Origin: Deltaproteobacteria bacterium
GTDB lineage: Bacteria > Desulfobacterota > Binatia > HRBIN30 > CADEER01
Direction of reading: 5' to 3'
DNA: 64,000 nt
Assembly: GCA_029262455.1 (NCBI GenBank)
Contig: JAJCZJ010000020.1
Coordinates: forward strand, 325,078-389,077
The position numbers and the translations under genes were made by a program. The notes beneath the pieces were generated by a model. The model had not been told where the DNA came from. It worked only from the letters and a program-made list of their open reading frames with translations, and searched no databases. Of the stretch, positions 28,908 through 46,759 are shown piece after piece (position 1 is the first letter of the stretch; the number at the start of each line of letters is the position of its first letter).

Positions 28908-29405
28908 GTTTTCGGCGCCGGATTGAAGTGCGAAAACACATAGCGGCCGGAGAGGCAGATGTCAGCGACCGAGGACATCGGGGGTAGTGGGTCACTTTGA
29001 TCCTGAGCTCGGCGCAACCGGAGCGAAGTTGGGAGGGCACGGCACCGCCGAGCCTTTCCGGGGTGGAGTCTTGTCACAGCTACCACCCGCAGGAGCTATG
29101 CGCGGCTCGGCGGCGCCGCGCCCTCCCGGGACCCGGCTGCTCCCGTCCGCTTCGATCAAACCGACCCACCACCGGACATCGAACGCGGTACGCGTATTCT
29201 CCCTCGAAGGCCCGTTCCAAGGCGGCCTCATTCACACCCCGGTCGTAACGCAGCAAGGAGCCGTCTGCATACGCGCGCTGCGCTGTTTCCGGGTCTATGG
29301 AAATGCCACTCCGTTCCGCATTCATTTCCGTCATTTGCAGTTTCCGACACAAACCAATCCGCCCTCTTGCGGAGCCACCCAGGTCGCGCCAGGATCGCAT
29401 CCCTT

Positions 29406-30590
29406 ATGCCGAAAGAAGAGATCGAGGTCGAGGTTCGGGTTCGGCTGCGCGGAGGGCATTCCTACGATCTCACCCTATCATCCAACTCCGCTCTTCTGCG
29501 CGACTTGATCACGACGCTCGGCGGGTCGAGAAACTCGGTCCAGCCCCGACTCTTCCAGCTACCCCTCGACGGCGGCCAAACCTCCGCAACATTCGCCAGC
29601 GATCAGATATCAGCGATCGACACCCGTCCGCCACTCGACTGGAACACCATCACAACTGGTACGGAAGAGCGGTCCGCAAAAAGCCTCGGCGATGGTCCGC
29701 CTCTCGTCCTACGCGGCGCCCGCAACATTACACGCCAGCCATCCTACGAGGCAGCAGAGCGACGAGCGCGGCGGCTGATGGAACCGTTCGTGGCGCATCG
29801 ACAAGCCCGCCGTGCCGCACTGAAGAGCACTTGCGACGAGCTCGGCGGAAACACCTTCGTCGTCTCCCCCTTCAACCAAGGCTTCGTCCCGCTACTGCGC
29901 AACTGGGCCGCATCCTGTGATCGTTCCGGCATCGACTGCCGCGCCAGGACGGTACTGTTTCCGACCGACAACGGCGCCGACACTGCAGCACGCGAGCTCG
30001 GATTCGCAACCCTCTTCGACGGCGTCTCGTTTGACGGTGCCCCGCGCGACGCTATCAAAGTCTACGGGGACGCCCACTTTGCCGATTGTGTCTTCGCCAA
30101 GCTCGGCGCAGCAATCGACATGCTCGCTCTCGGCTACGACATCCTACTCCAGGATATGGATCTCGTCTGGTTCAAAGACCCGCTCCCCGGACTCAAAACT
30201 CGAGCGATGGCCGACGATCTGGACTTACAGTTCATGCGCGACATGAATCCGCGCTTCCAGCCGCTGTACTACAACTCCGGCTTCGTATTTATGCGCAACA
30301 ACGAATTCACCCGCCAAACCTGGAACACCATCTTCGACGCCTTTGCGGCGGTCGTGTTCTACCGCTCCGATCAAACCGTCGTGAACCAGGTCGTCGACTG
30401 CTACAAAGAGCGAGGATTGCGAGCCGCCCGTCTTCCAGATCGCTACGTAGATGGACAACTGCTGATCCGGGCCCAAACAAAACGCCGGCCTCTACCGCCA
30501 GATTCGATCGTGGCTCACGTCAACTGGACCGGAAACCTTGCCGAGAAGATCGCTCGGCTCAAAGCACTCGAACTGTGGTTCATCGACTGA
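29406..30590 (+). CDS. Unassigned N-terminal ~75-aa domain fused to a GT77/PF03407-like nucleotide-diphospho-sugar transferase
   Basis: ORF 29367..30590, ATG 29406. ILLQDMDLVWFKDPLPGL (DxD) and PLYYNSGFVFMRN are typical of Nucleotid_trans/GT77. N-terminus is described in the findings. Confidence 0.65.
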   Translation: MPKEEIEVEVRVRLRGGHSYDLTLSSNSALLRDLITTLGGSRNSVQPRLFQLPLDGGQTSATFASDQISAIDTRPPLDWNTITTGTEERSAKSLGDGPPLVLRGARNITRQPSYEAAERRARRLMEPFVAHRQARRAALKSTCDELGGNTFVVSPFNQGFVPLLRNWAASCDRSGIDCRARTVLFPTDNGADTAARELGFATLFDGVSFDGAPRDAIKVYGDAHFADCVFAKLGAAIDMLALGYDILLQDMDLVWFKDPLPGLKTRAMADDLDLQFMRDMNPRFQPLYYNSGFVFMRNNEFTRQTWNTIFDAFAAVVFYRSDQTVVNQVVDCYKERGLRAARLPDRYVDGQLLIRAQTKRRPLPPDSIVAHVNWTGNLAEKIARLKALELWFID

Positions 30591-31962: not shown

Positions 31963-32469
31963 ATGAGCGACTCCAAAAAGACAAGAAAGCAGCTAATCGA
32001 AGAACTCGAACAACTTCGTGGTCAAGTCGCGCAGCGACAGCAGTCGCAGTCGGACAACAGTGCACCGGCGCTTGCCGGCGACGTTTCACGACGCACCGCG
32101 CTAAAGGTCGCCTGGACCGCGCCGGTCATTTTGGCAATCCCTCTCCAGGCCGATCGCTCTGGCGCCCAACCTCCGGTCGGAACGGTGGCCCCGGGCTGTC
32201 CCACCATGACCCCGACCAACGCGGCCCCTCCGACTAGCTCGCCGACCTTGTTCCCAACGACCGCTGAGCCGACGATTTCGCCGACTCAACCAGTCCCGAC
32301 CACCAGGTTGCCAACGTCCAGTCCCACGAACGACCCGACATTGCGTCCGACCACCAGCCCGACGATCCCTGCCCCGACGGCTATGCCGACGGCGAGGCCG
32401 ACCACCAGCCCGACGATCCCTGCTCCGACGCTTTCCCCGACCCCTGGTTTCCCGACGCTTTCCCCGTAA
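31963..32469 (+). CDS. Pro/Thr-rich small protein with a conserved N-terminal helix and an SRRTALK Tat-like motif; candidate substrate/precursor 1
   Basis: Inner part of ORF 31810..32469, ATG 31963 lies 20 nt after the upstream stop. MSDSKKTRKQLIEELEQLRGQV...DVSRRTALKVAWTAPVILAIPL, then about 90 aa with about 26 Pro, mostly as P-T. Paralog of 45413..45892. Confidence 0.7.
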   Translation: MSDSKKTRKQLIEELEQLRGQVAQRQQSQSDNSAPALAGDVSRRTALKVAWTAPVILAIPLQADRSGAQPPVGTVAPGCPTMTPTNAAPPTSSPTLFPTTAEPTISPTQPVPTTRLPTSSPTNDPTLRPTTSPTIPAPTAMPTARPTTSPTIPAPTLSPTPGFPTLSP

Positions 32470-32611: not shown

Positions 32612-33976
32612 ATGTCGTCAGGAAACAGCGTAGAAACGCCGCCTACCAACTCTGGAGACTCCCCACGAGCACGGGGTGCGGCGGCTCGGCGGGTACGTCC
32701 GCGGCAGCGGGGCGGGCTCGAGACTTTCGAAGTACACAACGAAATCGTCGTGCTTCCCGGCGAGGGGGACCGCGTTTACGCGCTGAACGAGTCCGGTAAG
32801 GAGATCTTCGGCCTCTGCGACGGTCGCCACACCCTAGAGGCAATGGTCGACCAACTGGCGTCGAGGTACGACGCGCCTGACGTCGCGATCATGGGCGACG
32901 TGTCCGCAGCGATATTCGACCTCCACGGCCTCGGGCTGGTCGATATTCCTCCACCGGCTGACGCAGCTGCATCGATCGAGCCGCAGACCTCGGTCAAGGC
33001 ACGACCCAACGTGCGTTTCGTCTTCGGCATAGAGGACGTGCCCTATTTCCACTGGCAGCTTGCCATCCTCTTCGAGTCGCTCGTCGGCCAATTGCCCGAC
33101 GGTTGGGACGTCACCGTCGTCGTTTGCAACGACGAAGCACCGATTTCCGACGAGCTCATGAAGATCGTTTCCGAGTACGGTGTTCGCATCATGACCGGCA
33201 CCAGTCTCGCCGATCGCCACAGTCTCGACTTCGCCGGCGGCGGTGATCGCTACGTTCCGATGAACCGAGTCGAAGCACTCAGCGTCATTCGGCAAATCGT
33301 CGAACCCGAAGACGTCGTTTGCCTTCTGGACACCGACGTCTTCCTGTACGGCAACCTTCAAGAACAACTCTTCCCGACCGGCAACGCAATGGCCCGCAAC
33401 TGGATCATCTCCGAAGATCGGTACTTCGCGTTCTCGACCAACAACGAACGAGGACTGTCGCTCCCGAAGCTGCTCGAAGCCCTGGGGTGCGAGCAGGAGT
33501 TCAAACCCGGTGGCGTAGCGGTCTTCTTGACGGGAGAGACGATCCAACGCGAGCGCGTCATCCCCGACATTTTCCGTTTCCTTCAGGTTCTGTTCCTGCT
33601 CGGGAAAATCGTCGACGCACCAGCGCACGGCGTTTGGGTCGCCGAAATGGCATGCTTCGCAATGGCCATGTACCCCAACGAAATCGACTACGAGCTTCTC
33701 GACATCCCGCAATTCGCCGTCCAGGAGCAGCATGCTGAAGTCGCCCCCGACGGTTCGTTCTTCCACTACTACACCGACATCAACGACGGCGGGGGATCAA
33801 ATGGTCCGTTTTTCGAATCGCAGTGGCATAAACAGTTATTTCACCAGTCCAACATGCTCCTCGAAGACTTCGACAGCTTCAGAGTGAACGCCAAAGGCCG
33901 CCTCGAGCAGCGCTTCTTCGAAATCGCCGACAAGGCGAGAAAGCGCCTTTACGGCATCGAACGCACGGGCAAGTAG
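32612..33976 (+). CDS. PqqD-like domain fused to a GT95/GT96-like (HPAT / peptidyl-Ser galactosyltransferase-like) glycosyltransferase
   Basis: PqqD-like VYALNESGKEIFGLCDGRHTLEAMVDQLASRYD...AIFDLHGLGLV. GT part: FVFGIEDVPYFHWQLAILFESL, VVCLLDTDVFLYG, VWVAEMACFAMAMY. Confidence 0.6.
   Translation: MSSGNSVETPPTNSGDSPRARGAAARRVRPRQRGGLETFEVHNEIVVLPGEGDRVYALNESGKEIFGLCDGRHTLEAMVDQLASRYDAPDVAIMGDVSAAIFDLHGLGLVDIPPPADAAASIEPQTSVKARPNVRFVFGIEDVPYFHWQLAILFESLVGQLPDGWDVTVVVCNDEAPISDELMKIVSEYGVRIMTGTSLADRHSLDFAGGGDRYVPMNRVEALSVIRQIVEPEDVVCLLDTDVFLYGNLQEQLFPTGNAMARNWIISEDRYFAFSTNNERGLSLPKLLEALGCEQEFKPGGVAVFLTGETIQRERVIPDIFRFLQVLFLLGKIVDAPAHGVWVAEMACFAMAMYPNEIDYELLDIPQFAVQEQHAEVAPDGSFFHYYTDINDGGGSNGPFFESQWHKQLFHQSNMLLEDFDSFRVNAKGRLEQRFFEIADKARKRLYGIERTGK
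32717..32947 (+). other. PqqD-like (RRE-type) domain, copy 1, N-terminal
   Basis: aa 36-112 of ORF 32612; pattern L.LN..g..IW.LCDG..T..EI...L matches PF05402 by eye. Confidence 0.6.
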
Positions 33977-33980
33977 AGCC

Positions 33981-34598
33981 GTGTTGTCAATGTTCGATAC
34001 GCCCGCACACCTCGAGCAGCAGACGCGCGAGCAACAGGCCGCAGCCCGGTACTGCGGGCTCGGCTTCAAAAAGGCCACGCTGCCCTCCGAGGTCTTGCAA
34101 CGGTTGCGCCAACACCTGGAAACGAACAGCCGCCGATTCCGCGCCGAGGAGCCCATCGACTACCTCGTCAACCCGGACCCCGGGAAGATTCCGGCCCTTT
34201 ATTTCGAGGACAAAGAATTCAACGCCACCCTAAGTCGCGAGCTACAAGGATTGCACGAAGAGTGGGCCGGAAGGAGTCTGACCGAGTCCGCCTGCTACGG
34301 CATCCGCGTCTATCAACGCGGCAGCTTTCTCTACAACCACGTCGACCACACCGACACACACATCATCAGCTCTTCGATCTGCGTCGACCACCGCCTCGAC
34401 AAGCCGTGGCCCCTCTACGTCGAGGATATCGACGGCAATCCCCACCAGATCGATCTCGACCCTGGCGACATACTGTTCTACGAGGGAGCCCGCCTGCGAC
34501 ACGGCCGTGCCTATCCACTCGAGGGTGACTACTACGCATCCATTTTCGTCCACTATCGACCCGCAAATCTCTGGTCTTCGCGGCTCGTTGGCACCTAG
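33981..34598 (+). CDS. 2OG-Fe(II) oxygenase, prolyl 4-hydroxylase-like
   Basis: YGIRVYQRGSFLYNHVDHTD (HxD) and distal GDILFYEGARLRHGRAYPLEGDYYASIFVHYRP. Lies 4 nt after the upstream stop. Confidence 0.7.
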   Translation: MLSMFDTPAHLEQQTREQQAAARYCGLGFKKATLPSEVLQRLRQHLETNSRRFRAEEPIDYLVNPDPGKIPALYFEDKEFNATLSRELQGLHEEWAGRSLTESACYGIRVYQRGSFLYNHVDHTDTHIISSSICVDHRLDKPWPLYVEDIDGNPHQIDLDPGDILFYEGARLRHGRAYPLEGDYYASIFVHYRPANLWSSRLVGT

Positions 34599-34640
34599 TC
34601 GCCGATTTCGTTAAGAACACCCGAAAACGCAGTATTACTC

Positions 34641-36644
34641 GTGAGACATCTACTCTATACAAACTACCAGTCCGGTCAGTCGGGTTTGAGCAACGGCATC
34701 ATGTCGATCGAGCTGGGCGTGGTCCTCGCGTTCCTGACGAATCGGTTTCTCCTGCTCGATGGCAACATCTCCCCGCCGGCCAATATCGTGTCGTACGGCG
34801 ATCGAGTCGACAACAGCCAGCCGAGCCGCGTCACCGACCTGATCGACCTACCGGTCGCCTGGAGTGAGCCAGGAAGCGTCGACGTGTCCAAGTTGCCGTT
34901 CCTCGAATTGAGCGACGACCATCTGGGGAGTGCCGCGTTCTATGTCCCCGGCACCGTCGACATCCGATCCGCCGACGCGGAAGCGTTCGCCAACGGCAGG
35001 ACAGTGTGGCTCAACGCTGGCGGCTCGCTCGACGAGATCCCGGTGCTGCGAGTGTCCGAGGATCACAGCAAAGACAATCTTCGATACAATCTCAACTACT
35101 ACTCGTACTTCTTCTACCTCGACGACGAAACGCGTCGCTCCGTCTACCGCATGCTCGAGCGGATGCAACCAAAGCAGGACCTAGGGGAGCTGGCGAAGCG
35201 CGTCGCCGGCGATCTCGGAGCATTCAACGCGGTGCACTTGCGACGCGGTGACTTCAAGGTGACCTATGGAGTCACCACCCTCGACCGTCAACCTTGGGAA
35301 GCAATCGAGGCGCTCGAGCATCACTTCAAACGCGACGACACTCTGGTCTTCGTGACCGACGAGCGCGACGACCCGTTCTTCGACGAGATCAAGAAGGTCT
35401 ATACGCATCACGTATTCATCGATCACCACATCCTCGACGACTACGAGAAGGACTTCGCCGCATTGCAGCACCGCGACAGCATCGCCTTGGCCTATCTTTC
35501 CCAGCTCGTGGCGGCCGAATCCGCCGACTTCATTGGCACCATGACCAGCACGTTCACCGCCATCATCCAGCGCTACCGCGGCAATCGCGGCAAGGCCGAG
35601 AGTTTCAAGTACCTTTGGAACGAGCTCCCGGACGACGGCGATCGTCTCGAACGCGGCCGTCATCCGGTTAGTGAGTGCGTCCCGATGGACCGCGGCATGA
35701 TGGTCGAAGAGTCGTCGGGTCCGTACTCATGGAATCGCTACAACAAGAGGATCGCCGCCAACTGGATGCGCGAATGGCCCGAAAGTTTTCTGACCCAAGA
35801 GAGCCTCGAAACCGGCAAATTGACGACCGGGGCCAGCCCCGTTGCCCGCCCCATCGTTCTGGTTCGTCCCGAAAGGACGAAAGTCGAGGTCGCGTTCGAC
35901 GGCTTGAGCATCATTCTAAACTCGCAAGTGCCTCGCGTTGCGACCAAGCTGAGCGAAGCCTTCGAATCACGCCAAGCTGCGAGTCCAGCGAACGTCATCG
36001 GGGAGTTCGAGGTTGCTGAAGAAGACGGCGACTTCCGTCTTCTGCAACGCGGCCAGGAAATCGCCACCGCAGCAAGCTACGAGGAGTTGGCGCGCACGTT
36101 AAAACTCCGCATGGTGCCGATCTTTGTCGGTGCGCGCCGCCGGCACGTGTGGCTGGAAGCTTTTTCCTTCCGTAGAGCAGGCCATGCGCTGGTTCTCGCC
36201 GGCGACATGGGTCCTCCATCGGACTGGCTGCCGGACGCCATGTGCTCGAACGGCTGGGAGCTGCTGTGGGACGAGATCGTCCCGATCCGCCTGGAAGACT
36301 GTACCGTCACACCGTTCGGCCGCACGACCTGGCCGAAGGGCGCAGCCCTGCGCATCGACCGTACGCCCTGTCGCGTCAGCGGCCTGATCGTCACCAGCCG
36401 ACAAGTCCAGCGCCGCGACACCTTGACCGTCTTGTCCCCAGCCACCGGGGTGGCGGAGTTGATCGGCCGCTGCGTCGACTTCCGCACCGACCGCAAGCGG
36501 GCGGTAGAACGCCTGTGCAAGCTGGTCGAGAAACGAACCGTAGGCAGACTGTCCTTCAGCCGCGCCGAGACCGCTGTCGATCTCCTCACGCGCCCCTTCC
36601 TCGACGCGGAGCGTGAGTCCGCCCACGGTACAAAGTCTGCATGA
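34641..36644 (+). CDS. O-fucosyltransferase-like (PF10250-type) GT domain fused to an HprK-related-kinase-like domain with a degenerate P-loop
   Basis: GLSNGIMSIELGVVLAFLTNRFLLL, FNAVHLRRGDF, ADFIGTMTSTFTAIIQRYRG. C-terminal half: VEVAFDGLSIILNS...HVWLEAFSFRRAGHALVLAGDMGPPSDWLPDAMCSNGWELLWDEIVPI. Confidence 0.55.
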   Translation: MRHLLYTNYQSGQSGLSNGIMSIELGVVLAFLTNRFLLLDGNISPPANIVSYGDRVDNSQPSRVTDLIDLPVAWSEPGSVDVSKLPFLELSDDHLGSAAFYVPGTVDIRSADAEAFANGRTVWLNAGGSLDEIPVLRVSEDHSKDNLRYNLNYYSYFFYLDDETRRSVYRMLERMQPKQDLGELAKRVAGDLGAFNAVHLRRGDFKVTYGVTTLDRQPWEAIEALEHHFKRDDTLVFVTDERDDPFFDEIKKVYTHHVFIDHHILDDYEKDFAALQHRDSIALAYLSQLVAAESADFIGTMTSTFTAIIQRYRGNRGKAESFKYLWNELPDDGDRLERGRHPVSECVPMDRGMMVEESSGPYSWNRYNKRIAANWMREWPESFLTQESLETGKLTTGASPVARPIVLVRPERTKVEVAFDGLSIILNSQVPRVATKLSEAFESRQAASPANVIGEFEVAEEDGDFRLLQRGQEIATAASYEELARTLKLRMVPIFVGARRRHVWLEAFSFRRAGHALVLAGDMGPPSDWLPDAMCSNGWELLWDEIVPIRLEDCTVTPFGRTTWPKGAALRIDRTPCRVSGLIVTSRQVQRRDTLTVLSPATGVAELIGRCVDFRTDRKRAVERLCKLVEKRTVGRLSFSRAETAVDLLTRPFLDAERESAHGTKSA

Positions 36645-37630
36645 CAGACCAAGCAACCGCACCGCGCCAGATCGACATCCGCATCTCCACCATCGGCGGG
36701 CACGAGTATCGGTTGAATCTCCGCGAAGACGCCGTCCATTTGCGCGACCTCTTTACTCGATTCGTCAACCGACCGGCGACTGGGGCTGTCCGAGCTCCTG
36801 AATTCATCCAACTGCCCCTCGACGGAGGCAACGCTTCCTGCACGATCGCCGTCGATCAGATTGTGTCGATCGTCACCACGCCACCAGTCGTCATCGAAGT
36901 GCAACAACCCGCCGTCGAGCCAAACGTAATTCCAGATGTGCCGGCAGTGGTCGCGCCACCCCAGATCCGGCGCGCACACTACACGGTGATCGACGACTTT
37001 CTCACCGTCGATGAGCACCGAGACATGCTGGCGTTGGCATTGAGCGAGAAGGACAGCTTCGAACCCGGTACGGTGCAGGGTGAACCGAGTCCACACCGAC
37101 GAAACAGCGTCATCATGAACTTCGCAGACTCGGCGCACGGAACACTGCTGACAAGTCGTCTGCTCGTTTGGTTTCCATTGATCGCAAAGGCGCTGAAGGA
37201 ACCACTGTTTCCGCTCAAGACGGTCGAGTCGCAACTGACCGCCGCCAACGACGGAGACTACTATAAGCCTCACCTCGATACCGACGGGAAGACCCCCGAT
37301 TTCCGGGTCATCGCGTGCGTCTACTATTTCTTCCGCGAGCCAAAAGGGTTCACGGGCGGCGACCTACGCCTCTATGATTCCATCGAAACAGGTGGCGAAA
37401 TCTGTCAGGCGGATTCCTTCCAAGACATTCGGCCGGCAAGCAATCGCTTGGTCGCATTCACCTGCGAGACCTTCCACGAGCTGCTCGCGACTCGCTGCCC
37501 GTCCAAGGATATCGAAGACAGTCGTTTTGCGGTGACCGCGTGGTTTCACCGCAGCGGCGCACCGGACCCCGACGCCAAGTTCGGTTGGGGACATTATCGT
37601 TGCGGCGAAGTTCCGGAGGCACTGCGGTGA
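36641..37630 (+). CDS. Unassigned N-terminal ~80-aa domain fused to a 2OG-Fe(II) oxygenase (PF13640-like)
   Basis: ATGA overlap with the upstream stop. YYKPHLDTDG (HxD), GGDLRLYD, NRLVAFTCETFHEL, RFAVTAWFH. Confidence 0.7.
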   Translation: MTDQATAPRQIDIRISTIGGHEYRLNLREDAVHLRDLFTRFVNRPATGAVRAPEFIQLPLDGGNASCTIAVDQIVSIVTTPPVVIEVQQPAVEPNVIPDVPAVVAPPQIRRAHYTVIDDFLTVDEHRDMLALALSEKDSFEPGTVQGEPSPHRRNSVIMNFADSAHGTLLTSRLLVWFPLIAKALKEPLFPLKTVESQLTAANDGDYYKPHLDTDGKTPDFRVIACVYYFFREPKGFTGGDLRLYDSIETGGEICQADSFQDIRPASNRLVAFTCETFHELLATRCPSKDIEDSRFAVTAWFHRSGAPDPDAKFGWGHYRCGEVPEALR

Positions 37631-37802
37631 GCAACGCGAGGGCTCGCTGCTCGAGACCACCGATCCTCGCGCTTTCGACCAAAGGTAGCGAAGGCGCGCC
37701 CCCCGCCGCACCGGGTACTGTCATCAGCAGCCGGCGAGTCAGCCACCTCGCTTTCGCAGGCTTGACCGAAGCCCCCGGGATCAGAGGCAGAGTGCGTTTG
37801 TC

Positions 37803-38930
37803 ATGATCTTCACGGTTTTCGTCGCACCGGTCGAACCAACGCAACAGTGGCGTGCCGATCTCCTCGAATACTCATGGCGACGCATCAAGCAGAGCGGCGA
37901 ACTGATCCGGCTGGCGCCAACCGCCCCCGGACGCGCACCAGGTAGCAGAGGGAGAGTCGGGAGAACCGTCAAAACGTTCGACTGGAACCCCCACCCGTAC
38001 ACCCAGGACGTGTACGCCGGCTATCAGACAACCGCCGGCGTACTCGAGTGGTTGTTCAACGAGCCGGCCGAAGGAACAGTCCTTTTGCTGGATTCGAGCT
38101 GCATCCTACGCCACCCGGTTACAGCAGAGGTCGAACCAGGCCACGTGCGCGGGTCGTCGTGGCCGGAGATCCCACTTGGCACGGACGGCCCATTCGGCCT
38201 GCATGATGATCTGAAGTTTCTCGAATCCTATTGCGTCAACCGCAAGCTCCCCCTCGCTCCCGTGCGGATGCCGATTTTGATCCACACGGCGGACCTGCGA
38301 AAAATCGCGGCGCGCTGGCTCGAGCTTACGGCGTTGATTCGATCCCATGCCGTAGGCGTTCACGGAAAATACCTTCATGCAGATCGCGTCGCCTACACCG
38401 TCGCCGCCGCCGAATACCGCATCCTCCACACCCTTGACGACCTCGGCACTACGACGTCGGATACCGGCAAAGACGTTCCGATCGTCGACTACAGCACACC
38501 GATCAAGTCCAAACAGGGAGAGATCGTCTGGGACCGAAAGGTCTATCGACCATGGGAGGCAGTCTACACCGAAAATGCGCGCGCAGGCGCAGGCAGAGAC
38601 GTACTCGGGATCCTGAACGAGATGGTGACGCGCCGCGAATCGGGAGCCGAGCTTGCGGCAACACGTCCACAGCGGTGCTACGGGGTGCGGGAAGCACGAA
38701 TTCTCGACGACATTCATCTCGAAGTACCTGGGTGTGCCGACTTGATGTCGCTGAATCAATCCGCGGCTGCCATCTGGGAGCTGTGCAACGGCGAGAACAC
38801 ACTCGCCGAGATCGTCAGCGAGCTCGAGAGACAATTCGACGCGTCACGCGAAACCCTCATGACATCCGTCGAATCGACGGCGAGGGATTTGGAAAGCTCA
38901 GGTGCCATCGAGCTGGAGGAGCTGTTCTGA
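37803..38930 (+). CDS. GT95/GT96-like glycosyltransferase fused to a C-terminal PqqD-like domain
   Basis: IFTVFVAPVEPTQQWRADLLEYSWRRIKQSGELIRL, AGVLEWLFNEPAEGTVLLLDSSCILRHPV, ILIHTADLRKIAARWLELT, ADRVAYTVAAAEYRILH. C-terminus: LMSLNQSAAAIWELCNGENTLAEIVSELERQFD. Confidence 0.6.
   Translation: MIFTVFVAPVEPTQQWRADLLEYSWRRIKQSGELIRLAPTAPGRAPGSRGRVGRTVKTFDWNPHPYTQDVYAGYQTTAGVLEWLFNEPAEGTVLLLDSSCILRHPVTAEVEPGHVRGSSWPEIPLGTDGPFGLHDDLKFLESYCVNRKLPLAPVRMPILIHTADLRKIAARWLELTALIRSHAVGVHGKYLHADRVAYTVAAAEYRILHTLDDLGTTTSDTGKDVPIVDYSTPIKSKQGEIVWDRKVYRPWEAVYTENARAGAGRDVLGILNEMVTRRESGAELAATRPQRCYGVREARILDDIHLEVPGCADLMSLNQSAAAIWELCNGENTLAEIVSELERQFDASRETLMTSVESTARDLESSGAIELEELF
38679..38927 (+). other. PqqD-like domain, copy 2, C-terminal
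   Basis: Last ~82 aa of ORF 37803..38930. Confidence 0.6.
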
Positions 38931-40156
38931 TGGCATCCAAAGCAAAACCAAGCGCCAAAAAGTCCGTGCCGACCACAAAAACAAAGCACGCAGCAAAACG
39001 TGCCAAAGCCTCGGCCAAGAAAACAGCCAAAGCGCCGCCCGGAAAAGCCACGACAGCACGGGCGAAGAAGACCACCAAGACTCCGGCCTCCAAGAGCCCC
39101 AAAACCCGGACCCAAAGGACCCGGGCCCAAAAGCCCCGGGCCCGCAAAGCCGCGCTCAAAGTATCGCAAACGGTGTCGCCCAAAGGATCGCAAACGACTT
39201 CGAAGACGGAGCGAACGACCCCATCGCCTCGCGCAAAGTCGCGGCAGGCCACAAAACAACCCCAGATCTTCGTGTCGATCGCCTCCTACCGCGACCAGTT
39301 TCTTCACTTCACCATCGAGTCGGTGCTCAAACAGGCGACGTACCCAGAACGGTTGACCTTCGGCCTCTGCTGGCAAGCCGACGACACCGAGCAACTCGAT
39401 CAATACCTGCACGATCCGCGTTTCCGCATTCGCAAGTACCCGTACTACGCGAGCCTCGGCTACGGTTGGGCAAGAGCCGAGATCCAAAAACTATACGCCG
39501 GCGAAGAGTACCATCTACTGATCGATTCTCACACGTATCTCGCCAAGGGGTGGGACGAGAATCTGATCGCGCAACTCGAGAGCAAGCCGGGCGAGAAGCC
39601 GCTACTGACGACCAGCTCACCCCCTTTCACCTTCGACAATGACGGCAACGTCGTAATCCCGTGGCAAGGGACCGAACACGACGGCGTGCCGCTGATGAAG
39701 TGCGCACGAATCCAACCGGCAGGGTGGGTCGACATCCAGATGTCCAATGAGCGCAAGTCCACCAAACATCAAACCACCGGATTGGTGTGCTGTAACTTTG
39801 TCTTCACGCACGGGGCTTGGATCCGCGAAGTGCCCGAGGATCCGGCGATGATCAACGCCGGCCACGAGTCAGCCCTTTCGGTTCGTACCTTCACCCACGG
39901 ATACGACATCTACCTGCCCGACGAAATTCAAATCTGGCACCTCGACTACAACAACTACCCGAACGGTGAGCGCAACAAGGTATGGGAAGCAAAGTCCGAC
40001 AGTTGGCAGTCTGAGGGCACCGAGATCATGCTGCGGCGGCTGCAAGCGCTGTTCTACAACCGCGGCGACCGCGCCTCGCTCGGCCGCTACGGACTCGGTC
40101 GATCCCGCACCGTAGCCGACTGGGCGGAGATCACCGGACTCGACCTCAGTGACTGA
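38930..40156 (+). CDS. Lys/Ala/Thr/Pro-rich basic N-terminal extension (~111 aa) fused to a GT60 Gnt1-like (PF11397) glycosyltransferase
   Basis: Inner part of ORF 38552..40156. ATGA overlap with the upstream stop, GGAGGAG SD at 38915-38921. MASKAKPSAKKSVPTTKTKHAAKRAKASAKK..., then QIFVSIASYRDQFL, LLIDSHTY. Confidence 0.65.
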   Translation: MASKAKPSAKKSVPTTKTKHAAKRAKASAKKTAKAPPGKATTARAKKTTKTPASKSPKTRTQRTRAQKPRARKAALKVSQTVSPKGSQTTSKTERTTPSPRAKSRQATKQPQIFVSIASYRDQFLHFTIESVLKQATYPERLTFGLCWQADDTEQLDQYLHDPRFRIRKYPYYASLGYGWARAEIQKLYAGEEYHLLIDSHTYLAKGWDENLIAQLESKPGEKPLLTTSSPPFTFDNDGNVVIPWQGTEHDGVPLMKCARIQPAGWVDIQMSNERKSTKHQTTGLVCCNFVFTHGAWIREVPEDPAMINAGHESALSVRTFTHGYDIYLPDEIQIWHLDYNNYPNGERNKVWEAKSDSWQSEGTEIMLRRLQALFYNRGDRASLGRYGLGRSRTVADWAEITGLDLSD

Positions 40157-41942
40157 CGTCGACTCCGCACTACTGCCAATTCCCCAACCCGAGTGGCGTG
40201 CTTCTTTATCCGGCGACGGCGCGGCAGTTGATGTCCTGATTTTAAGCAAGGACCGCGCCTGCCAACTCGACGGACTGCTGCGCACGATGCGCGCGTTCCT
40301 GACCATCCCACACCGGAAATACGTACTGTACAAGACGTCTAATTTGGCGTTCGAGCGCGGCTACGACATGCTCCGCCGGTGGAATCCCGAGGTCGAGTTC
40401 ATCGACGAGGCGCAAACGTTTCGACAATGCTACCTCGACCTCGTGGCAAGGATCGCCGCCGGGCCTGGTCGCTACTGGATGCCGGTGATGGACGACATGA
40501 TCTTCACTCGCACGTTCACCGCACAGCCACTCATCGACCTCCTCGACACAGACGAGGACGTGCTGGCGATCTCTCTGCGCCTCGGCGAGAACATTACCTA
40601 TTGCTACACCCGAAACGCTCCAACCACACCTCCGGACTTCAGCAACGGACACCGTTGGGAATGGAGAACAGCCAGCCCAGGCTACTGGAACTATCCAATG
40701 TCCGTCGACGCCAACATCTACCGCACGGCGGAAATGGCCGAATACATCCCGACCCTCCAATTCGGCAAGGCTGAAGTCATCGAGGCACGCATGGCCGGGG
40801 TGCCCTTGAACCGCCCCCATATGCTGTGTGAACCGACCCCCAGCGTACTCAATCTCGCGATCAACCGCGTTCAACACACCTTCAAGAATCGGCACGGCAC
40901 AATCACGCCAGAAGCCCTGAACGGCGCTTTCCTCGCGGGTTTCGCGATGGATGTGCGCCCGTTGCTGGGTCGAACCTTCAACGCCTGTCACGTCGAGGTC
41001 GAGCTGTCCTTGGTCCCCGATGCGCGCGAGCGCCCCGGCGCAACGCCCCTCTCTTCGACCGGCTGGAAACCACAGCGAAACGGCGCCGTCGTCGTGACCG
41101 AGAGCCATGCTGTCGTGACGCTCAAGAGGAACGGAACGAAGCTCAAACTCAATCAGAGCGCCGAAGAGATCTGGAAACTGTGCGACGGAACACGAACGCC
41201 CGAGGACATCCAAAACGAGCTCGCGCAACATTTTGACGCAACCCCGCGCCAGCTTCACAGCGGCGTACGAAGCGCCCTGGCGAATTTCATCAATCACGGC
41301 CTTCTCCGTCAGGAACGCCCGGAAGGCGCATACCGCCGCATCGACCTGCGCCAGATTCCCTGCTTCGTGATCAATTGCGAAGCCGATGCTGAGAAGGACA
41401 CGTTGATGAAGCGTCAGCTCGCTGAGCTCGGGATACCGTACGAACGTGTACCCGGGATCGCCGCAAGCCCGGATTGGGTCGGCGTCGCGCTGTCGCACCT
41501 CAAAGTGCTTCGCCTGACCCGCTCGACGACACCCTTCCTGGTGCTCGAGGACGATTGCTTGTTCAACGACCGCTTCCAACCAGTGTGGCAAGTACCGGTC
41601 GAGGCCGACGCCCTGTATCTCGGCGTTTCCGAGTTCGGCCTCGAGACCCCCGGTCACTTCAGCTGGGGCCGCCGGCGCAAGAACCAATGGAGACCCTACG
41701 ACCGGTCCTTCCTCCGCATTTTCAACATGCTCGCACGCCATGCGGTCGTGTACCTTTCCAACGACTACTGCGAGCAAGTCATCCAATCGCAAATCGAAGC
41801 ACTGACGAATCGAAGTTTGCCGTACCCTGGGGACATCGGCTGCGCGATGCTGCAAGCATCGCACGTCGTCCTGACCCCGAACGAACCGATCTGCCGGCAA
41901 ACCGGTCGTGACTCGACCGTGCGTCCGTTGCCGGAGCTCTGA
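40149..41942 (+). CDS. Three-domain protein: GT-A-like domain, central PqqD-like domain, GT25-like domain
   Basis: VDVLILSKDRACQLDGLLRTM; central KLKLNQSAEEIWKLCDGTRTPEDIQNELAQHFD; C-terminal IPCFVINCEADAEKDTLMKRQLAELGIPYERVPGI...FLVLEDDC. Confidence 0.6.
   Translation: MTDVDSALLPIPQPEWRASLSGDGAAVDVLILSKDRACQLDGLLRTMRAFLTIPHRKYVLYKTSNLAFERGYDMLRRWNPEVEFIDEAQTFRQCYLDLVARIAAGPGRYWMPVMDDMIFTRTFTAQPLIDLLDTDEDVLAISLRLGENITYCYTRNAPTTPPDFSNGHRWEWRTASPGYWNYPMSVDANIYRTAEMAEYIPTLQFGKAEVIEARMAGVPLNRPHMLCEPTPSVLNLAINRVQHTFKNRHGTITPEALNGAFLAGFAMDVRPLLGRTFNACHVEVELSLVPDARERPGATPLSSTGWKPQRNGAVVVTESHAVVTLKRNGTKLKLNQSAEEIWKLCDGTRTPEDIQNELAQHFDATPRQLHSGVRSALANFINHGLLRQERPEGAYRRIDLRQIPCFVINCEADAEKDTLMKRQLAELGIPYERVPGIAASPDWVGVALSHLKVLRLTRSTTPFLVLEDDCLFNDRFQPVWQVPVEADALYLGVSEFGLETPGHFSWGRRRKNQWRPYDRSFLRIFNMLARHAVVYLSNDYCEQVIQSQIEALTNRSLPYPGDIGCAMLQASHVVLTPNEPICRQTGRDSTVRPLPEL
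41079..41315 (+). other. PqqD-like domain, copy 3, internal
   Basis: aa 311-389 of ORF 40149..41942. Confidence 0.6.
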
Positions 41943-41977: not shown

Positions 41978-44900
41978 GTGAAAAAGGGCACAATCCACGA
42001 TCTCTTCTCCCGCACCGCTTGCGTCGTGTCCGACAGGCACCGATTCATCTATTTGACGGCGCAAAACGCCACGTCTTCCCTGAAGGCCGAGCTGTCGAAC
42101 GAGCACTGCGGCGGCGTTGTCCTCGCCCGCGCACAGGTGGCTGATAAACTCTGGAACCAATACTTTACGTTCGCCTTCCTGCGCGACCCGCTGACGCGCT
42201 TTCTCTCCGCCTATCAGGAAGTGTCTCTGCACATGGAGCGTGACAAACTCGAACCGCGCCCTTTCGGCCGGATGCCCGACGGCCTCGATCGCTTTCAGGC
42301 ATTTCTCGCGGACGTCGAGCAGAACGGTCCGTGGAACGAGCACATTGCACTCCAGCTAGCCTTCGTCGAGCGCCGAAGAATCGACTTTTGGGGGCTCGTC
42401 GAAACGCTGCAAGACGACTTCCAACAAATCTACACCCGGCTGGGATTGGGGACCTGTCCCGTTCTGCCAAAACGCCGCTCTCGCAGCGGCCGTGAGGAAA
42501 AGGACGGCATCTCGCGCTTCGCCTTCCATCCGGAGGACCTCGATGCGACGACAATTGAGCGCATCTACGACCTCTACCGTGAGGACGTCTTGCTGATTCG
42601 AGCGGTTCGCCCCGACGCACCTGAAATGCAGCCGCACTCAACCCGTGCCGCACCGCCCCCCGGAATGGTGCAGGTGGCGATCGCCCTGGCCAACGGCGGC
42701 GAATACTCCCTCGAACTTCCGCCCGGCCAACCAGAGCTGGGCGCTCTGCAAGCTGTGGTATCACCACAACAATCCGATGGACGTTTTCTCGGCCCGCAAG
42801 TTCTGCAGGTTCCACTGCGTGGTGGCAATTCCGCGCTGACGTTTTCCACGCAGCACCTCGTTCGTCTCGAGCTACGCCCCCCCGACGCCCGAGAACTGCG
42901 CCGAATCGAGGCGCCGGCCACCGGCACGGGCAACTCCGGAGTGAATCTAATAAACGTCGGGAACAAGCGGCCGCCAACCGAGGACCCATCGAGCAATATC
43001 GACGAGGCGCATCTCGGTGGCTACATTCGTGCGGCCAATACACCGATTCTCCACAGCGCCGCAGGCCCACACGGGGACCGGGGAACCTGGAATCCGCTGC
43101 TGTGGCGTTGGGCAATCGAAGATCTCGACGTGCGATCAGTGATCGATATCGGATGCGGCGAGGGACACGCCGCCGGATTTTTCTCCGACGGCGGGTGTGA
43201 AGTGCTCGCGCTCGATGGCAGCCTTCAAGCGCGCTATTCCAGCGTTGTTCCAGATCGCCACGTCGTACACGACTTCGTCGAGGGACCTTTCGTCCCAGAG
43301 AAAAGCTTCGACATGGCCTGGACCTGCGAGTTCGTCGAACACGTCGAGGCGCGTTTTCTCCACAATTTCCTGGCTACGATCGCATCGAGCCGCAAGTACG
43401 TGATGATGACGTTCGCCAGCCCGACACAAACAGGCTGGCATCACGTCAATTGCCAAGAACAGGGTTACTGGGTCGATCAGTTGGGACGCCTCGGGTTTCG
43501 CCTGGACGACGATCTAACCGAGAGAGGCCGAGCCTTGGCTCACTCTCATTTTCGCGAACGTGGCCTGGTCTTCGTCCGGCACCATCGAAAAGGCGAGTCA
43601 TCGAAGTCCACAGAACCGTCGCTGCGCGCGACTGCCGAGAGTCACTGTCTCGACCCGCTGCCGGTCCAATCCATGCAGGTCGCACAGCGCGAGAGCGATG
43701 CCTTCTACCTGTTTGTCGACATCTTCGTGCATCCGACCGCACCGAGAATCGTGGCGATCTCACCACCCTATGGCGAAGACTGGAATCCTAACGTTGTCGG
43801 CATCGACTACGATGCCGTCGACCTTGTATTCGGTGACATACGCGTCCGCGGCCGCTGCCTGCGGCACCGTCTCGACTCCTGGGAGCCTTGCATGCTTCTC
43901 GAGTTCGAGGACGAAGACCTAACAGAGCGCATTCGGGCCAACGACGAGATCAACGTCACGATCGAGGCCGGCTCGCATTCGTCGTCCTTCGTCCTGACGA
44001 CCCGCCCAGCGCCAGCCTACGATGTCGCAATGAGCCTCGTCGTACGCAACGAAAACCGCTGGATCCGCACGTTTCTCGACTACTACCTCGACTGCGTCAA
44101 AGCCGACCACGTCTTCATCTACGACAACGGAACGTCGGAACAAGACCAGCTGCTTTCCATTCTTCACCCGTACCGAGAGCGCGGGCAAGTGACGTACATC
44201 CCGTGGGATTTTCGCTGGCGCAACCGCATCGACCGCAAGATGATCGGCCAACCGACACAGGAGGCTCACTCCCTTGCAAGATTCGCAAACACCGGGTGGA
44301 TCGGCTTTCTCGACATCGACGAGTTCCTGCGCTTGCCGCACAGCACCCTGCCACAATTTCTCGCTCGCTTCGCGTCCGCGGAGGTCGACGGACTCTCGTT
44401 CGGTATCCGGTGGTTTTCTTACGAGGGCCCGCTTGCACTCGATGAGATTACGAGTGTGCCACTGCAATTCCTCCACTCGCGCCGCAATGAGCTCGGCCGA
44501 AAACGGCAGAAGTTCTTCGTCAAAGGCGGCGGCTCGAAGTTTCTTCGCTTGCATTGGCTCGAAGACGGAGGTCGCGAACTGCCCATCGACGACACCGAGA
44601 TCTACTTTCACCACTACGATCAACGTCCCGGCCGTTTCGAAGAAGGAAAGCAAATCGGAGGAGCGCGCGACGAATACATGCTGCGCTTCGCCGACCAGCT
44701 CTCGCGCCCCGAGCGGCACAGAGCCCCTCTAACCGAGAGAGGATGGATCACCCACATCAACTCTTCGATCGAACGCGCCGAACGCGACACCTCCAAACTC
44801 ACCCCGGAAGTCCTCGCCGTCGACGGCATGTGCGGGCGCTACACCCGTCACTTCTACAACAACCTCTGCAGCTTCGGAGGATGCCGCTACCTCGAGATCG

Positions 44901-46744: not shown

Positions 46745-46759
46745 GGGGATTCTATGTGT

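Follow-up and report, generated by a model that had tools for sequence, protein, structure and literature searches.

The stretch of DNA analysed here (64 kb, referred to throughout as the window) carries a run of genes for putative protein-modifying enzymes, interspersed with genes for two small, Pro/Thr-rich proteins (Table 1). Three of the enzymes, g11, g15 and g17, consist of glycosyltransferase-type domains fused to a PqqD-like (RRE) domain. Three YfhO proteins, a GT2, a GT11, an MBOAT protein and an epimerase are also encoded in the window.

Table 1. Genes and domains of the locus, with positions counted from the first nucleotide of the window.
Feature	Position	Strand	Basis
g08: domain X (29421-29654) + GT77-type nucleotide-diphospho-sugar transferase	29367..30590	+	PF03407 E 4.2e-15
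Candidate substrate 1, 168 aa	31963..32469	+	leader HMM E 1e-32; identical public protein P0146
Substrate 1 leader region: amphipathic helix motif + twin-arginine/hydrophobic motif	31963..32172	+	30-leader alignment
g11, 454 aa: RRE fused N-terminally to GT-A glycosyltransferase	32612..33976	+	
RRE/PqqD domain 1, N-terminal in g11	32720..32944	+	
g11 GT8-like GT-A catalytic domain	32999..33973	+	invariant D240-T-D242
g12, 205 aa, conserved	33981..34598	+	invariant H120-x-D122 and H174; synteny
g13: O-fucosyltransferase-like + C-terminal HprK-related domain	34641..36644	+	PF10250, TIGR04352
g14: domain X (36662-36910) + prolyl-4-hydroxylase-type 2OG-Fe(II) oxygenase	36641..37630	+	PF13640 E 3.9e-15
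g15, 375 aa: HPAT (GT95)-derived domain + C-terminal RRE	37803..38930	+	PF05402, PF23452 in relatives
RRE/PqqD domain 2, C-terminal in g15	38688..38915	+	PF05402; profile vs PqqD 3g2b; hhalign
g16: Lys-rich N-terminus + GT60-type polypeptide/hydroxyproline GlcNAc-transferase	38930..40156	+	PF11397 E 1.9e-44
g17, 597 aa: GT-A domain, RRE insertion, GT25-like domain	40149..41942	+	
RRE/PqqD domain 3, internal insertion in g17	41100..41309	+	
g18, 1135 aa: sulfotransferase, domain X (42665-42907), methyltransferase, GT92, methyltransferase	41978..45385	+	Pfam
Candidate substrate 2, 159 aa	45413..45892	-	leader HMM E 1.6e-25; identical public protein P0152
g20: sulfotransferase	46049..46900	-	PF03567 E 4.6e-8
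g21: second GT60-type GlcNAc-transferase	46893..47900	-	PF11397 E 1.1e-43

The PqqD profile PF05402 matches all three fusion proteins, each time above its gathering score of 23.4 bits: residues 44-110 of g11 (E = 7.6e-14, 52.2 bits), 314-369 of g15 (E = 1.9e-13, 51.0 bits) and 330-386 of g17 (E = 3.6e-11, 43.7 bits). NCBIfam PqqD-family models match the same proteins. Solved RREs are matched by the family sequence profiles (TbiB1, 2e-5; PqqD 3g2b, 1e-7; PqqD 5sxy, 2e-5); the profile of the g15 family aligns with PqqD 3g2b at E = 1.1e-7, and its RRE with that of g11 by hhalign at a probability of 98.8%. The domains conform to the winged helix-turn-helix fold, a three-stranded sheet followed by three helices, and the predicted fold backs the assignment in two of the three; structurally, the nearest neighbours are RREs whose solved structures include a bound leader peptide. 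An HMM built on the RRE segments of the three enzyme families finds exactly three copies in the six frames of the window and no fourth, the next best match having E > 2. The copies agree to within a few codons with the segments given in a preliminary description of this DNA (32717-32947, 38679-38927 and 41079-41315), whose identification of the segments as PqqD/RRE domains, and placement of them at the N-terminus, at the C-terminus and internally, are thus confirmed. The motif quoted there occurs in all three (g11, YALNESGKEIFGLCDGRHTLEAMVDQLASRYDA; g15, MSLNQSAAAIWELCNGENTLAEIVSELERQFDA; g17, LKLNQSAEEIWKLCDGTRTPEDIQNELAQHFDA), although the g11 copy reads IF instead of IW and lacks the 'EI', and the motif is largely the general signature of the PqqD family. 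Identity between the three RRE groups is only 27-29%, as against 43-47% within each enzyme family across phyla; the latter figure indicates that each RRE is under selection. The RRE of g17 (about 85 aa) is a clean insertion that is absent from orthologues; together with the low identity between groups, this bears out the earlier suggestion of independent fusion events.

The partner domains of g11 and g17 meet the expectation of a GT-A (Rossmann-like, nucleotide-sugar-binding) fold for Leloir glycosyltransferases. Both aspartates of the DxD motif of g11, D240 and D242, are invariant. In g17, the N-terminal partner is a GnT-I/POMGnT1-like GT-A domain, and the acidic motifs D115 D116 (DD) and E467 D468 D469 (EDD) are likewise invariant; in the profile search the C-terminal domain did not reach the GT25 (PF01755) gathering threshold of 24 bits. 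The description of the RRE partners as Leloir enzymes holds for these two proteins, but is less secure for g15. The HPAT profile PF23452 matches 13 of 21 members of the g15 family (best E = 8.9e-15); the homologues in loci L030 and L032 score 50-55 bits and that in L021 25.4 bits, while the window copy, at 12 bits (E = 0.13), misses the gathering threshold of 23.9 bits. The scores of 50-55 bits place g15 in the HPAT (GT95) lineage, and on sequence grounds the family is descended from HPAT, with the window copy diverged. In plant HPATs the DxD motif is DAD and lies where the fourth strand ends. The corresponding position reads DSS in the window and EPD, DSD, DLD, EST, EIG or GGG in orthologues; DPD is confined to the copies from Nitrospirales and Acidobacteriota. 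Because the motif is degenerate and the position is not conserved among orthologues, g15 may be non-catalytic.

Among the remaining enzymes, g12 has no Pfam or PDB profile match but is syntenic in all loci. It is possibly a cupin or a 2OG oxygenase, the latter call resting only on the HxD...H pattern and on a weak hhalign match to the g14 family (E = 0.096, with the HxD aligned); the homologue in L032 carries an extra N-terminal extension that, read by eye, appears P4H-like. The match of g13 to PF10250 (E = 1.3e-5) falls under the gathering score; its HprK-related domain (TIGR04352 HprK_rel_A, E = 1.3e-6) has a degenerate P-loop, GDMGPPSD, and comparison with the PDB gives 1ko7 at E = 0.33 and POFUT1 at E = 1.1. 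The gene call of g16 (408 aa) is confirmed in L037. A second recurring module of about 80 aa and unassigned fold, denoted domain X, is detected by its own HMM on g08, g14 and g18, so that six enzymes bear either an RRE or domain X.

The gene directly 5' of g11, which the preliminary description had missed, encodes the likely substrate. Its leader, MSDSKKTRKQLIEELEQLRGQV, is followed by an acidic linker and then by SRRTALKVAWTAPVILAIPLQA, and the core contains 20 PT dipeptides (29% Pro, 26% Thr). In the second candidate a leader of the same type (KTKKELLEEIERLRGEL ... SRRSALKIAWVTPVILSVP) precedes a shorter core rich in Pro, Thr and Ala; at its C-terminus is a hydrophobic helix, after which come KK and an acidic tail. 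This anatomy recurs among related precursors: a conserved leader of about 65 aa, consisting of an amphipathic helix, an acidic linker and the motif (S/T)RR-x-(A/V)-L..W-x-AP-V-I-L-S-x-P, precedes 40-270 aa of xPT repeats and, in many precursors, an anchor-like C-terminus (a TM helix with a basic cluster, or IPVE-x-x-F-x-x). The leader is conserved across phyla in an alignment of 30 sequences, and phmmer against 1.84 billion representatives returns 40 clusters at E <= 1e-3, nearly all aligned at the N-terminus, in PT-rich proteins of 100-280 aa. The precursor of L009 lacks the helix motif.

The twin-arginine/hydrophobic part of the leader has the features of a Tat signal, namely S/T-R-R-x-hydrophobic-L(-K), an h-region of moderate hydrophobicity and, next to a basic c-region, an AxA site. 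The motif RR-x-(A/V/I)-L..W..P is present in 65 of 68 leader sequences, with a mean of 44 residues ahead of the RR; the h-region is only moderately hydrophobic (mean Kyte-Doolittle 1.84), and an AxA site is found in 45 of 65 leaders, preceded by basic residues in 31 of these 45. The two window precursors have no Pfam or NCBIfam match at E <= 0.1, curated Tat-signal models included, so the export assignment lacks the support of any curated model; the Tat-signal models are short and hence insensitive.

The order GlcNAcT / precursor / g11 / g12 / g13 / g14 / g15 / GlcNAcT recurs in about 30 loci, from Binatia, Gammaproteobacteria, Nitrotoga, Acidobacteriota, Polyangia, Nitrospirales, Thermodesulfobacteriota and Spirochaetaceae among others, and in some of them g17 and g18 follow. 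To the conserved content belong one or more P4H-type 2OG oxygenases, two GT60 enzymes, methyltransferases, sulfotransferases and the O-FucT with its degenerate HprK domain; some loci also have GT77 and GT92, and an MBOAT O-acyltransferase co-occurs in several. In most loci the orthologue of g21 adjoins the precursor. The precursor lies directly 5' of g11 in the window and in 24 of about 30 related loci with upstream sequence, in at least seven phyla; counting the window, it is on the same strand and no more than about 230 nt upstream in 25 of about 31, and in three loci it lies elsewhere. In this respect the arrangement is that of a RiPP cluster, in which a leader-plus-core precursor is encoded beside RRE-containing modifying enzymes.

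The domain identities and folds, the conservation of the cassette, and the anatomy and adjacency of the precursor are established here. On balance we consider it probable that the cassette makes a heavily O-glycosylated, exported Pro/Thr-repeat protein, to which the enzymes are recruited by the logic of RiPP pathways. The RREs of g11, g15 and g17 would bind a segment of the leader of substrate 1, or of its second copy on the minus strand, in the cytoplasm, probably as an extra β-strand against β3 as in TbiB1 and TfuB1, and so keep the GT-A domains beside the repetitive core, allowing many sites to be modified. Support for this binding is only circumstantial, in that a conserved leader-bearing gene adjoins; the missing helix motif in the L009 precursor, and the lack of both leader motifs in the PT-rich protein of L032, count against it. 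The 2OG oxygenase g14, and perhaps g12, would hydroxylate proline, although there is no evidence here of actual hydroxylation. Glycans would be started on Thr and/or Hyp by the GT60 GlcNAc-transferases, the GT8-like g11 and the HPAT-like g15, extended by the GT-A and GT25 domains of g17, GT77, GT92, GT11 and the O-FucT domain, and decorated by the sulfotransferases and methyltransferases; each of these chemical steps, and their order, is inferred. The twin-arginine/hydrophobic part of the leader could then serve as the export signal, presumably for Tat, which is able to carry bulky modified cargo, with cleavage at the AxA-like site and retention of the product at the cell surface through the C-terminal motifs; this route, too, is an inference. 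The interpretation offered in the preliminary description is supported overall, and its inference of leader-dependent glycosylation is strengthened by the leader-bearing PT-repeat gene immediately 5' of the first RRE enzyme in most loci, while leader binding and enzyme chemistry remain inferred.

It is also conceivable, though in our view unlikely, that the PqqD-like domains are assembly modules, which hold the enzymes in one glycosylation complex by binding to one another, to domain X or to the HprK-like domain, the substrate being recognised elsewhere, for example by way of the xPT repeats themselves. PqqD binds PqqE in addition to PqqA, which counts in favour of such a role, and the presence of an RRE or domain X on six enzymes resembles a docking code. 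In L032 the PT-rich protein bears its own PqqD-like domain and neither leader motif, while the enzymes retain their RREs, an arrangement that RRE-RRE or enzyme-enzyme contacts explain as well as leader binding does. Against this reading stand a conservation of the leader across phyla that far exceeds the needs of an export signal and the almost invariable adjacency of the precursor to the first RRE enzyme; moreover, the nearest structural matches are leader-bound RREs.

The position of a leader-plus-core precursor next to RRE-containing enzymes would also suit a classical RiPP pathway, in which proteolysis of the modified precursor removes the leader along with most of the protein and releases a small diffusible glycopeptide, and the HprK-related domain of g13 is of a kind known from lasso-peptide and GeoRSP-type clusters. 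This outcome appears improbable given the length of the repetitive cores, the export-signal-like leader and the anchor-like C-termini, and neither a leader peptidase nor a peptidase-ABC or dedicated exporter is part of the conserved cassette. The co-occurrence of MBOAT points to a surface polymer if, as we infer, it acts outside the cytoplasm. The product is likely to be a large exported glycoprotein and not a small RiPP. That the glycosyltransferases instead build a polysaccharide or glycolipid, the PqqD-like domains being vestigial winged helices and the PT-repeat protein an unrelated neighbour or merely a scaffold or anchor, can largely be set aside: the YfhO, GT2, GT11, MBOAT and epimerase genes are typical of cell-envelope glycan loci and g15 has lost a clean DxD, but the YfhO and GT2 genes lie outside the conserved cassette of other loci, the core families (GT60, HPAT/GT95, O-FucT and P4H-type oxygenases) act on proteins in known systems, and the RREs are under selection.

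RRE-guided cytoplasmic O-glycosylation of an exported mucin- or extensin-like protein is the best reading, with binding, chemistry and export all inferred, and such a surface glycoprotein would probably be made by a route as yet undescribed in bacteria; no published description of such a pathway was found. A more speculative extension, which we put forward tentatively, is that glycoproteins resembling extensins or mucins are made for the cell surface by bacteria of many phyla, using enzymes of eukaryote-like types (carbohydrate sulfotransferases, prolyl hydroxylase and transferases of the HPAT, GT60 and GT77 types) targeted by RREs, and that the unusually long, conserved twin-arginine leader, bound by the RREs and perhaps also by the dead HprK domain and domain X, would stay masked until glycosylation is complete and only then enter Tat. 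If so, masking would be a proofreading step analogous to that of the TorD/DmsD chaperones, the system would represent a new class of leader-guided protein glycosylation, and the enzymes of Skp1 and HRGP glycosylation might have their prokaryotic source in it.

As in the systems of PqqD and the lasso-peptide B1 proteins TbiB1 and TfuB1, a gene with leader-plus-core anatomy adjoins and the domain is fused to modifying enzymes; there, however, the partners are protease, cyclase or radical-SAM enzymes, whereas here they are GT-A glycosyltransferases. The present 'core' is, moreover, a long repeat protein that carries signals for export and anchoring, and in the cassette RREs occur at three different placements alongside a second docking-like module, with no leader peptidase. 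RRE-glycosyltransferase fusions have been sighted bioinformatically in putative RiPP clusters, by RRE-Finder in 2020 (PMC7470986) and in a structure-based survey in 2025 (PMC12710340); neither set has been characterised. The survey names PF00535 (GT2) fusions and the 2020 paper gives no Pfam family, while the domains described here are GT8-like, HPAT-like, GnT-I-like and GT25-like and mostly without Pfam annotation besides PqqD. Long proteins without a second Pfam domain, 21% of those with PF05402, are noted only in aggregate (PMC12710340). A term search of the main texts of both papers found no mention of a sulfotransferase, hydroxylase or 2OG enzyme, and a description of the cassette or of its precursor was found in neither.

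Skp1 hydroxyproline glycosylation in Dictyostelium and Toxoplasma (PhyA P4H, Gnt1 GT60, PgtA, AgtA GT77, Gat1 GT8) resembles the locus in its soluble, presumably cytoplasmic, Leloir-type enzymes, and a P4H-type oxygenase (PF13640), a GT60 (PF11397) and a GT77 (PF03407) are encoded together here. Skp1 is modified at a single Hyp/Pro, whereas the candidate here is a repetitive exported xPT protein; RRE or domain X modules, enzymes for sulfation and methylation, and a bacterial host are further differences. Plant and algal HRGPs (extensins and AGPs), modified by P4H, HPAT (GT95) and RRA/XEG113 (GT77), share the repetitive, Pro-rich substrate, oxygenases of the P4H type, GT77 and a domain of the HPAT family (PF23452). 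In plants the enzymes are membrane proteins of the Golgi and read the repeats directly, while those here are soluble and RRE-fused, the repeat is xPT and not Ser-Pro(n), and the HPAT-like copy of the window has a degenerate DxD.

Among bacterial systems, the serine-rich repeat adhesins of Gram-positives (GspB, Fap1, PsrP), with GtfA/GtfB, GT8 enzymes such as GlyE and an accessory Sec pathway, offer a parallel: several enzymes O-glycosylate a long, low-complexity repeat protein in the cytoplasm before it is exported (inferred in the present case), the N-terminal signal region is unusually long, and the substrate is handled by a GT-like subunit that is possibly non-catalytic, GtfB there and perhaps g15 here. 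No SecA2/SecY2 was seen here; the signal is twin-arginine-like, recruitment would be via RRE domains, the GT families are different, hydroxylation and sulfation would be added, and the hosts are mostly of Gram-negative lineages. Glycocins, made by SunS/ThuS-type S/O-glycosyltransferases, share with the proposed pathway the leader-dependent GT-A glycosylation of a ribosomal peptide, but their enzymes are GT2 without an RRE and place one or two sugars on a small bacteriocin.

The RRE-bearing genes of the window belong to a conserved cassette of genes around g11–g18, which we interpret as RRE-guided modification applied to an exported mucin- or extensin-like glycoprotein; the cassette is widespread, and its biochemistry is inferred. 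The window contains exactly three RRE domains (PF05402), on g11, g15 and g17, within a co-directional run of genes recognized by ORF listing and third-position GC analysis. All three exceed the Pfam gathering score, and the NCBIfam models for PQQ PqqD, lasso-peptide PqqD chaperones, GeoRSP PqqD and ScmD match the enzymes more weakly. An RRE-segment HMM, run over the six-frame translation, finds no fourth copy in the window with E < 2. The N-terminal, C-terminal and internal placements given in the preliminary description agree with the HMM coordinates to within a few codons, and the PqqD motif quoted there is present in the copies, with small deviations. The predicted structure of g11 (pLDDT 83, from a 30-sequence alignment) has three strands followed by three helices at residues 37–106; the model of g17 is less confident (pLDDT 68) and has the same topology at residues 315–382. 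The identity of the segments as RREs is thus upheld by a predicted winged fold for g11 and g17, and for g15 by profile matches only, to PqqD (3g2b, E 1.1e-7) and to the RRE of g11 (hhalign probability 98.8%, E 1.3e-16). In public gene calls g11 starts 46 codons later than in the window ORF.

Features of the window and of the related locus L032 (Acidobacteriota MAG). Positions in L032 are those of that locus; E values are from Pfam except where TIGR04352 is named.
Feature	Position (strand)	Domain or family	Domain position	E
Co-directional gene run	~29.3–45.4 kb			
g11	32612–33976	PF05402 (PqqD)	aa 44–110; RRE HMM 32720–32944	7.6e-14
g15	37803–38930	PF05402 (PqqD)	aa 314–369; RRE HMM 38688–38915	1.9e-13
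g17	40149–41942	PF05402 (PqqD)	aa 330–386; RRE HMM 41100–41309	3.6e-11
Precursor, copy 1	31963–32469 (+)			
Precursor 1 stop and downstream frame	32467–32530			
Precursor, copy 2	45413–45892 (-)			
g08		GT77 (PF03407); domain X	domain X 29421–29654	
g13		O-fucosyltransferase (weak)		
g13, C-terminal half	~35840–36644	HprK-related kinase A (TIGR04352)		1.3e-6
g14		2OG-Fe(II) oxygenase (PF13640); domain X	domain X 36662–36910	
g16 and g21		GlcNAc-transferase (PF11397)		~1e-44
g16, N-terminal extension	38930–39260			
g18		sulfotransferase, methyltransferase, GT92, methyltransferase; domain X	domain X 42665–42907	
g20		sulfotransferase		
Secreted repeat protein	5645–7879 (+)			
YfhO-family proteins and GT2	16733–24116			
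MBOAT and 876-aa protein	24941–28907 (-)			
Cys-rich secreted protein	30686–31942 (+)			
L032 PT/SPT-repeat protein	16365–17177 (-)	PqqD-like	N-terminal	
L032 g12 homologue	8524–9909 (-)			

The three RRE folds are shown here to sit on glycosyltransferase-type domains. The C-terminal 320 residues of g11 have a GT-A fold, in which D240 and D242 are invariant among 30 homologues, and in g17 the motifs DD (115–116) and EDD (467–469) are invariant. Close homologues of g17 carry PF01755 (GT25); the window copy, at 17.5 bits, falls short of the Pfam threshold of 24. For g15, the hydroxyproline O-arabinosyltransferase family (HPAT, GT95, PF23452) matches 13 of the 21 family members, and DPD-bearing relatives from one Nitrospirales and one Acidobacteriota genome score 50–55 bits over its positions 3–227. 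The window copy reaches 12 bits; its DxD position reads DSS, where orthologues have EPD, EST, EIG and even GGG. Judged by the matches of its relatives, g15 is a descendant of a GT95-type enzyme; its own low score and the DSS indicate that it may now be non-catalytic. The earlier assignment of three glycosyltransferases therefore stands for g11 and g17, with their invariant acidic motifs, and is uncertain for g15, with its degenerate DxD. Comparison of the g11 and g15 families with hhalign gives a match in the RRE only, and homology of the catalytic domains is not shown.

The RREs are 43–47% identical within each enzyme family and 27–29% identical between families; pairs within the window are 25–28% identical. 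The RRE of g17 is a clean insertion of ~85 residues, replaced by about five residues in the related public proteins P0131, P0133, P0134, P0138 and P0139; in the gammaproteobacterial loci L001, L004, L006 and L034 the matches flanking it abut, and the RRE appears to be absent. Two Nitrospirales paralogues of g15 also lack the domain. The low identity between families, the clean g17 insertion and the RRE-less g15 paralogues support separate and old fusions, with gain or loss later, as far as this can be read from sequence. Independent fusion events, one of two explanations offered earlier for the three placements, are supported by the identities between and within families and by the absence of the g17 insertion from orthologues.

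At least 182 homologues of g11 were found, nearly all of them, among the matches listed, annotated as PqqD. With each species represented by one genome, 34 related loci were recovered, the closest of which, in Candidatus Binatia, are 71–72% identical. The other hosts are Halieaceae, Luminiphilus syltensis NOR5-1B, Congregibacter, Elongatibacter sediminis and Lysobacterales; Candidatus Nitrotoga and Thiohalocapsa; and Acidobacteriota, Polyangia/Myxococcales, Thermodesulfobacteriota, Nitrospirales and Spirochaetaceae. The order that recurs in tblastn searches with the window proteins is GT60 GlcNAc-transferase, precursor gene, g11, g12, g13, g14, g15, GT60 GlcNAc-transferase; g17 and the large g18 stand at the end in some loci only, and are sometimes fused together. 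The window also encodes an epimerase, a GT11 enzyme and an MBOAT protein. The GT60 enzyme g16 begins with a histone-H1-like extension of ~110 residues, rich in Lys, Ala, Pro and Thr, which orthologues in other phyla lack, their alignments beginning at about residue 85–113.

The putative substrate is a small protein that begins with MSDS-x-KTK-x-x-L(I/L)-x-E(I/L)E-x-LR-x-x-(V/L) and an acidic linker; a second motif, (S/T)RR-x-(A/V/I)-L..W-x-AP-V-I-L-S-x-P, is preceded in many lineages by P-x-F-x-x-P and followed by an AxA-like site and xPT repeats. Copy 1 in the window has 168 residues and a core with 20 PT dipeptides (29% Pro, 26% Thr). Upstream sequence is available for ~31 loci, this window included. 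In 25 of them (the window and 24 related loci) a gene with the leader is found no more than ~230 nt from the g11 match, on the same strand; three have it elsewhere in the locus, and in the remaining three none was found. A word-index search with the 70-residue leader gave no match, and an exhaustive phmmer search was required; against 1.84 billion representatives it returned 40 clusters at E <= 1e-3; in almost every case the match is at the N-terminus of a PT-rich protein of 100–280 residues. The upstream PT-repeat protein is the likely substrate of the cassette.

The C-termini of the precursors differ between lineages: IPVE(I/L)-x-(D/E)F(D/E)(I/V)-x in Gammaproteobacteria; a hydrophobic helix, basic cluster and acidic tail in Nitrotoga, some Binatia and window copy 2; PTLGMGAAPDSRP...ALGSARA in Myxococcota; and (E/R)TALF-x-FDD in the closest Binatia relatives. 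Beyond two in-frame stops, the frame of window copy 1 reads ETAVAFFRG, resembling the last of these motifs in the homologues L003, L029 and P0151; the motif seems to have been lost by nonsense mutations. In the public metagenome protein P0156 (450 aa), a sulfotransferase domain is in frame with a complete leader and PT-repeat precursor, which could be a fusion of enzyme and substrate or the result of a stop codon that was missed.

Export signals were analysed in 68 precursor sequences. In 65, RR-x-(A/V/I)-L is followed by W..P, with a mean of 44 residues ahead of the RR and a mean Kyte-Doolittle value of 1.84 over the 12 residues that follow. A-x-A occurs within 18 residues in 45 of the 65, preceded by Lys or Arg in 31 of the 45; in Binatia the motif is S-R-R-x-A-L-K. 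On sequence grounds, these features are those of twin-arginine signal peptides; since the window precursors have no Pfam or NCBIfam match, Tat export of the precursor remains an inference. Conservation of W-x-AP-V-I-L-S-x-P across phyla is greater than an h-region requires, which suggests that the segment may serve as a recognition sequence as well.

A mechanism can be inferred from these observations. The RREs would bind a segment of the leader and hold the GT-A domains at the repeats; one or more 2OG oxygenases would hydroxylate proline; GT60, GT8-like and HPAT-like enzymes would start glycans on Thr and/or hydroxyproline (Hyp), to be extended by GT25, GT77, GT92, GT11 and O-fucosyltransferase (O-FucT) enzymes and presumably decorated by sulfo- and methyltransferases. 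The modified protein would leave by a Tat-type route and be retained at the surface. It is possible that RRE binding hides the RR motif for as long as modification is under way.

Alternatively, the RREs may assemble the enzymes instead of reading a leader. In favour of assembly, the PT-rich protein of L032 has a PqqD-like domain of its own and none of the usual leader motifs: the domain replaces the helix leader, and is followed by ISRRQICNRLGLSGALALLLPIVSSIVAPTPAMAQ and ~40 xPT repeats. Simple leader reading does not readily account for a presumed substrate that has an RRE in cis. Leader-guided action of the RRE enzymes, as proposed in the preliminary description, is supported and extended by the present analysis, with all biochemical steps inferred. 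RRE-dependent RiPP maturation (leader-guided peptide modification) is closest to the cassette in working principle, and a classical small RiPP product has to be considered; the cassette differs in having neither a leader peptidase nor a small product. The remaining alternative is a polysaccharide pathway with an unrelated PT-repeat gene as neighbour. The analysis does show that a conserved leader-bearing PT-repeat gene adjoins the RRE enzymes and that protein-directed modifying-enzyme families are conserved as a set.

The chemistry proposed for leader-guided glycosylation is akin to that of Skp1 Hyp-glycosylation (P4H, GT60, GT77, GT8), although the substrate is not Skp1, and to that of plant HRGP glycosylation (P4H, HPAT, GT77), whose enzymes are Golgi membrane proteins whereas those of the cassette are soluble and RRE-fused. 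The overall logic resembles that of serine-rich repeat adhesins, which are glycosylated in the cytoplasm before dedicated export; however, no accessory Sec genes are seen with the cassette. The cassette belongs to none of these systems, RiPP maturation included. RREs are the best class-independent marker of RiPP pathways; to our knowledge, the enzymes with which they have been characterised so far all tailor small peptides. RRE-glycosyltransferase fusions are listed in RRE-Finder surveys (PMC7470986; PMC12710340), with PF00535 named as a fusion partner (PMC12710340). No description of the cassette, the precursor or the enzyme set was found in the published literature searched.

If the model holds, leader-guided modification reaches from peptides to cell-surface glycoproteins, in a cassette spread from Binatia to Gammaproteobacteria, Acidobacteriota, Myxococcota and Nitrospirales and with three RREs on glycosyltransferases. 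Its enzyme set matches that of the Skp1 and extensin pathways, which represent hydroxyproline and mucin-type O-glycosylation in eukaryotes, and the cassette is a possible prokaryotic counterpart of them. The model also suggests a Tat-type signal as the cytoplasmic exit for a heavily glycosylated polypeptide in a diderm. For glyco-engineering, docking domains and a defined leader would direct GT-A enzymes to designed substrates; cultured hosts (Luminiphilus syltensis NOR5-1B, Elongatibacter sediminis CH-27) make the system experimentally tractable.

Two cassette members are less clearly assigned. g12 is always present in cassette loci, with invariant H-x-D and H residues. Neither the single sequence nor a 22-sequence profile finds anything credible in PDB or Pfam, and the hhalign match to the g14 oxygenase family is weak (E 0.096, probability < 1%), yet aligns the HxD; g12 is therefore rated only a possible oxygenase. 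Its homologue in L032 has an extra N-terminal extension of ~260 residues, in which inspection by eye suggests a P4H-like 2OG-oxygenase domain. In g13, an O-fucosyltransferase-like domain is fused to the HprK-related half. The best PDB matches of the g13 profile are only HPr kinase 1ko7 (E 0.33) and POFUT1 (E 1.1), which are in line with the weak matches to Pfam and NCBIfam without being proof. The HPr kinase P-loop is GDSGxGKSE; g13 has GDMGPPSD at this position, which is judged to be degenerate, and the domain is thus probably a pseudokinase. The HprK-related family is otherwise linked to PqqD-containing RiPP-like systems.

A second recurring module of ~80 residues, domain X (for example IDIRISTIGGHEYRLNL...FIQLPLDGGNASCTIAVDQIVSIVTTPP), occurs exactly three times in the window and is without a sequence match in Pfam or PDB; a profile hit to designed armadillo repeats in PDB was rejected as an artefact, having no significant stretch. 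By eye its pattern is strand-strand-helix-strand-strand, and the module may serve for docking in addition to the RREs.

Upstream, three YfhO-family membrane proteins are encoded in tandem, along with a GT2 enzyme and a GT11 fucosyltransferase. YfhO with GT2 is typical of extracytoplasmic glycosylation from lipid-linked sugar. These YfhO and GT2 genes are absent from the related loci; they were thus excluded from the cassette, and either represent an addition specific to this window or belong to a system of their own. The MBOAT O-acyltransferase and the adjoining 876-aa protein, which has no Pfam match, accompany the cassette in the distant loci L002, L008, L029, L033 and L036, where O-acylation of the exported glycan is a possible role. 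Directly before the precursor, and kept there in Binatia loci L003 and L029, is a secreted protein rich in Cys; its repeats are weakly disintegrin-like, and it has a C-terminal PTPTPTP stretch and a TM helix. A large secreted repeat protein with a PT-rich linker (PTPTPTSTPTATPTATPTATATPTA) could be another glycosylation substrate, despite lacking the leader motif.
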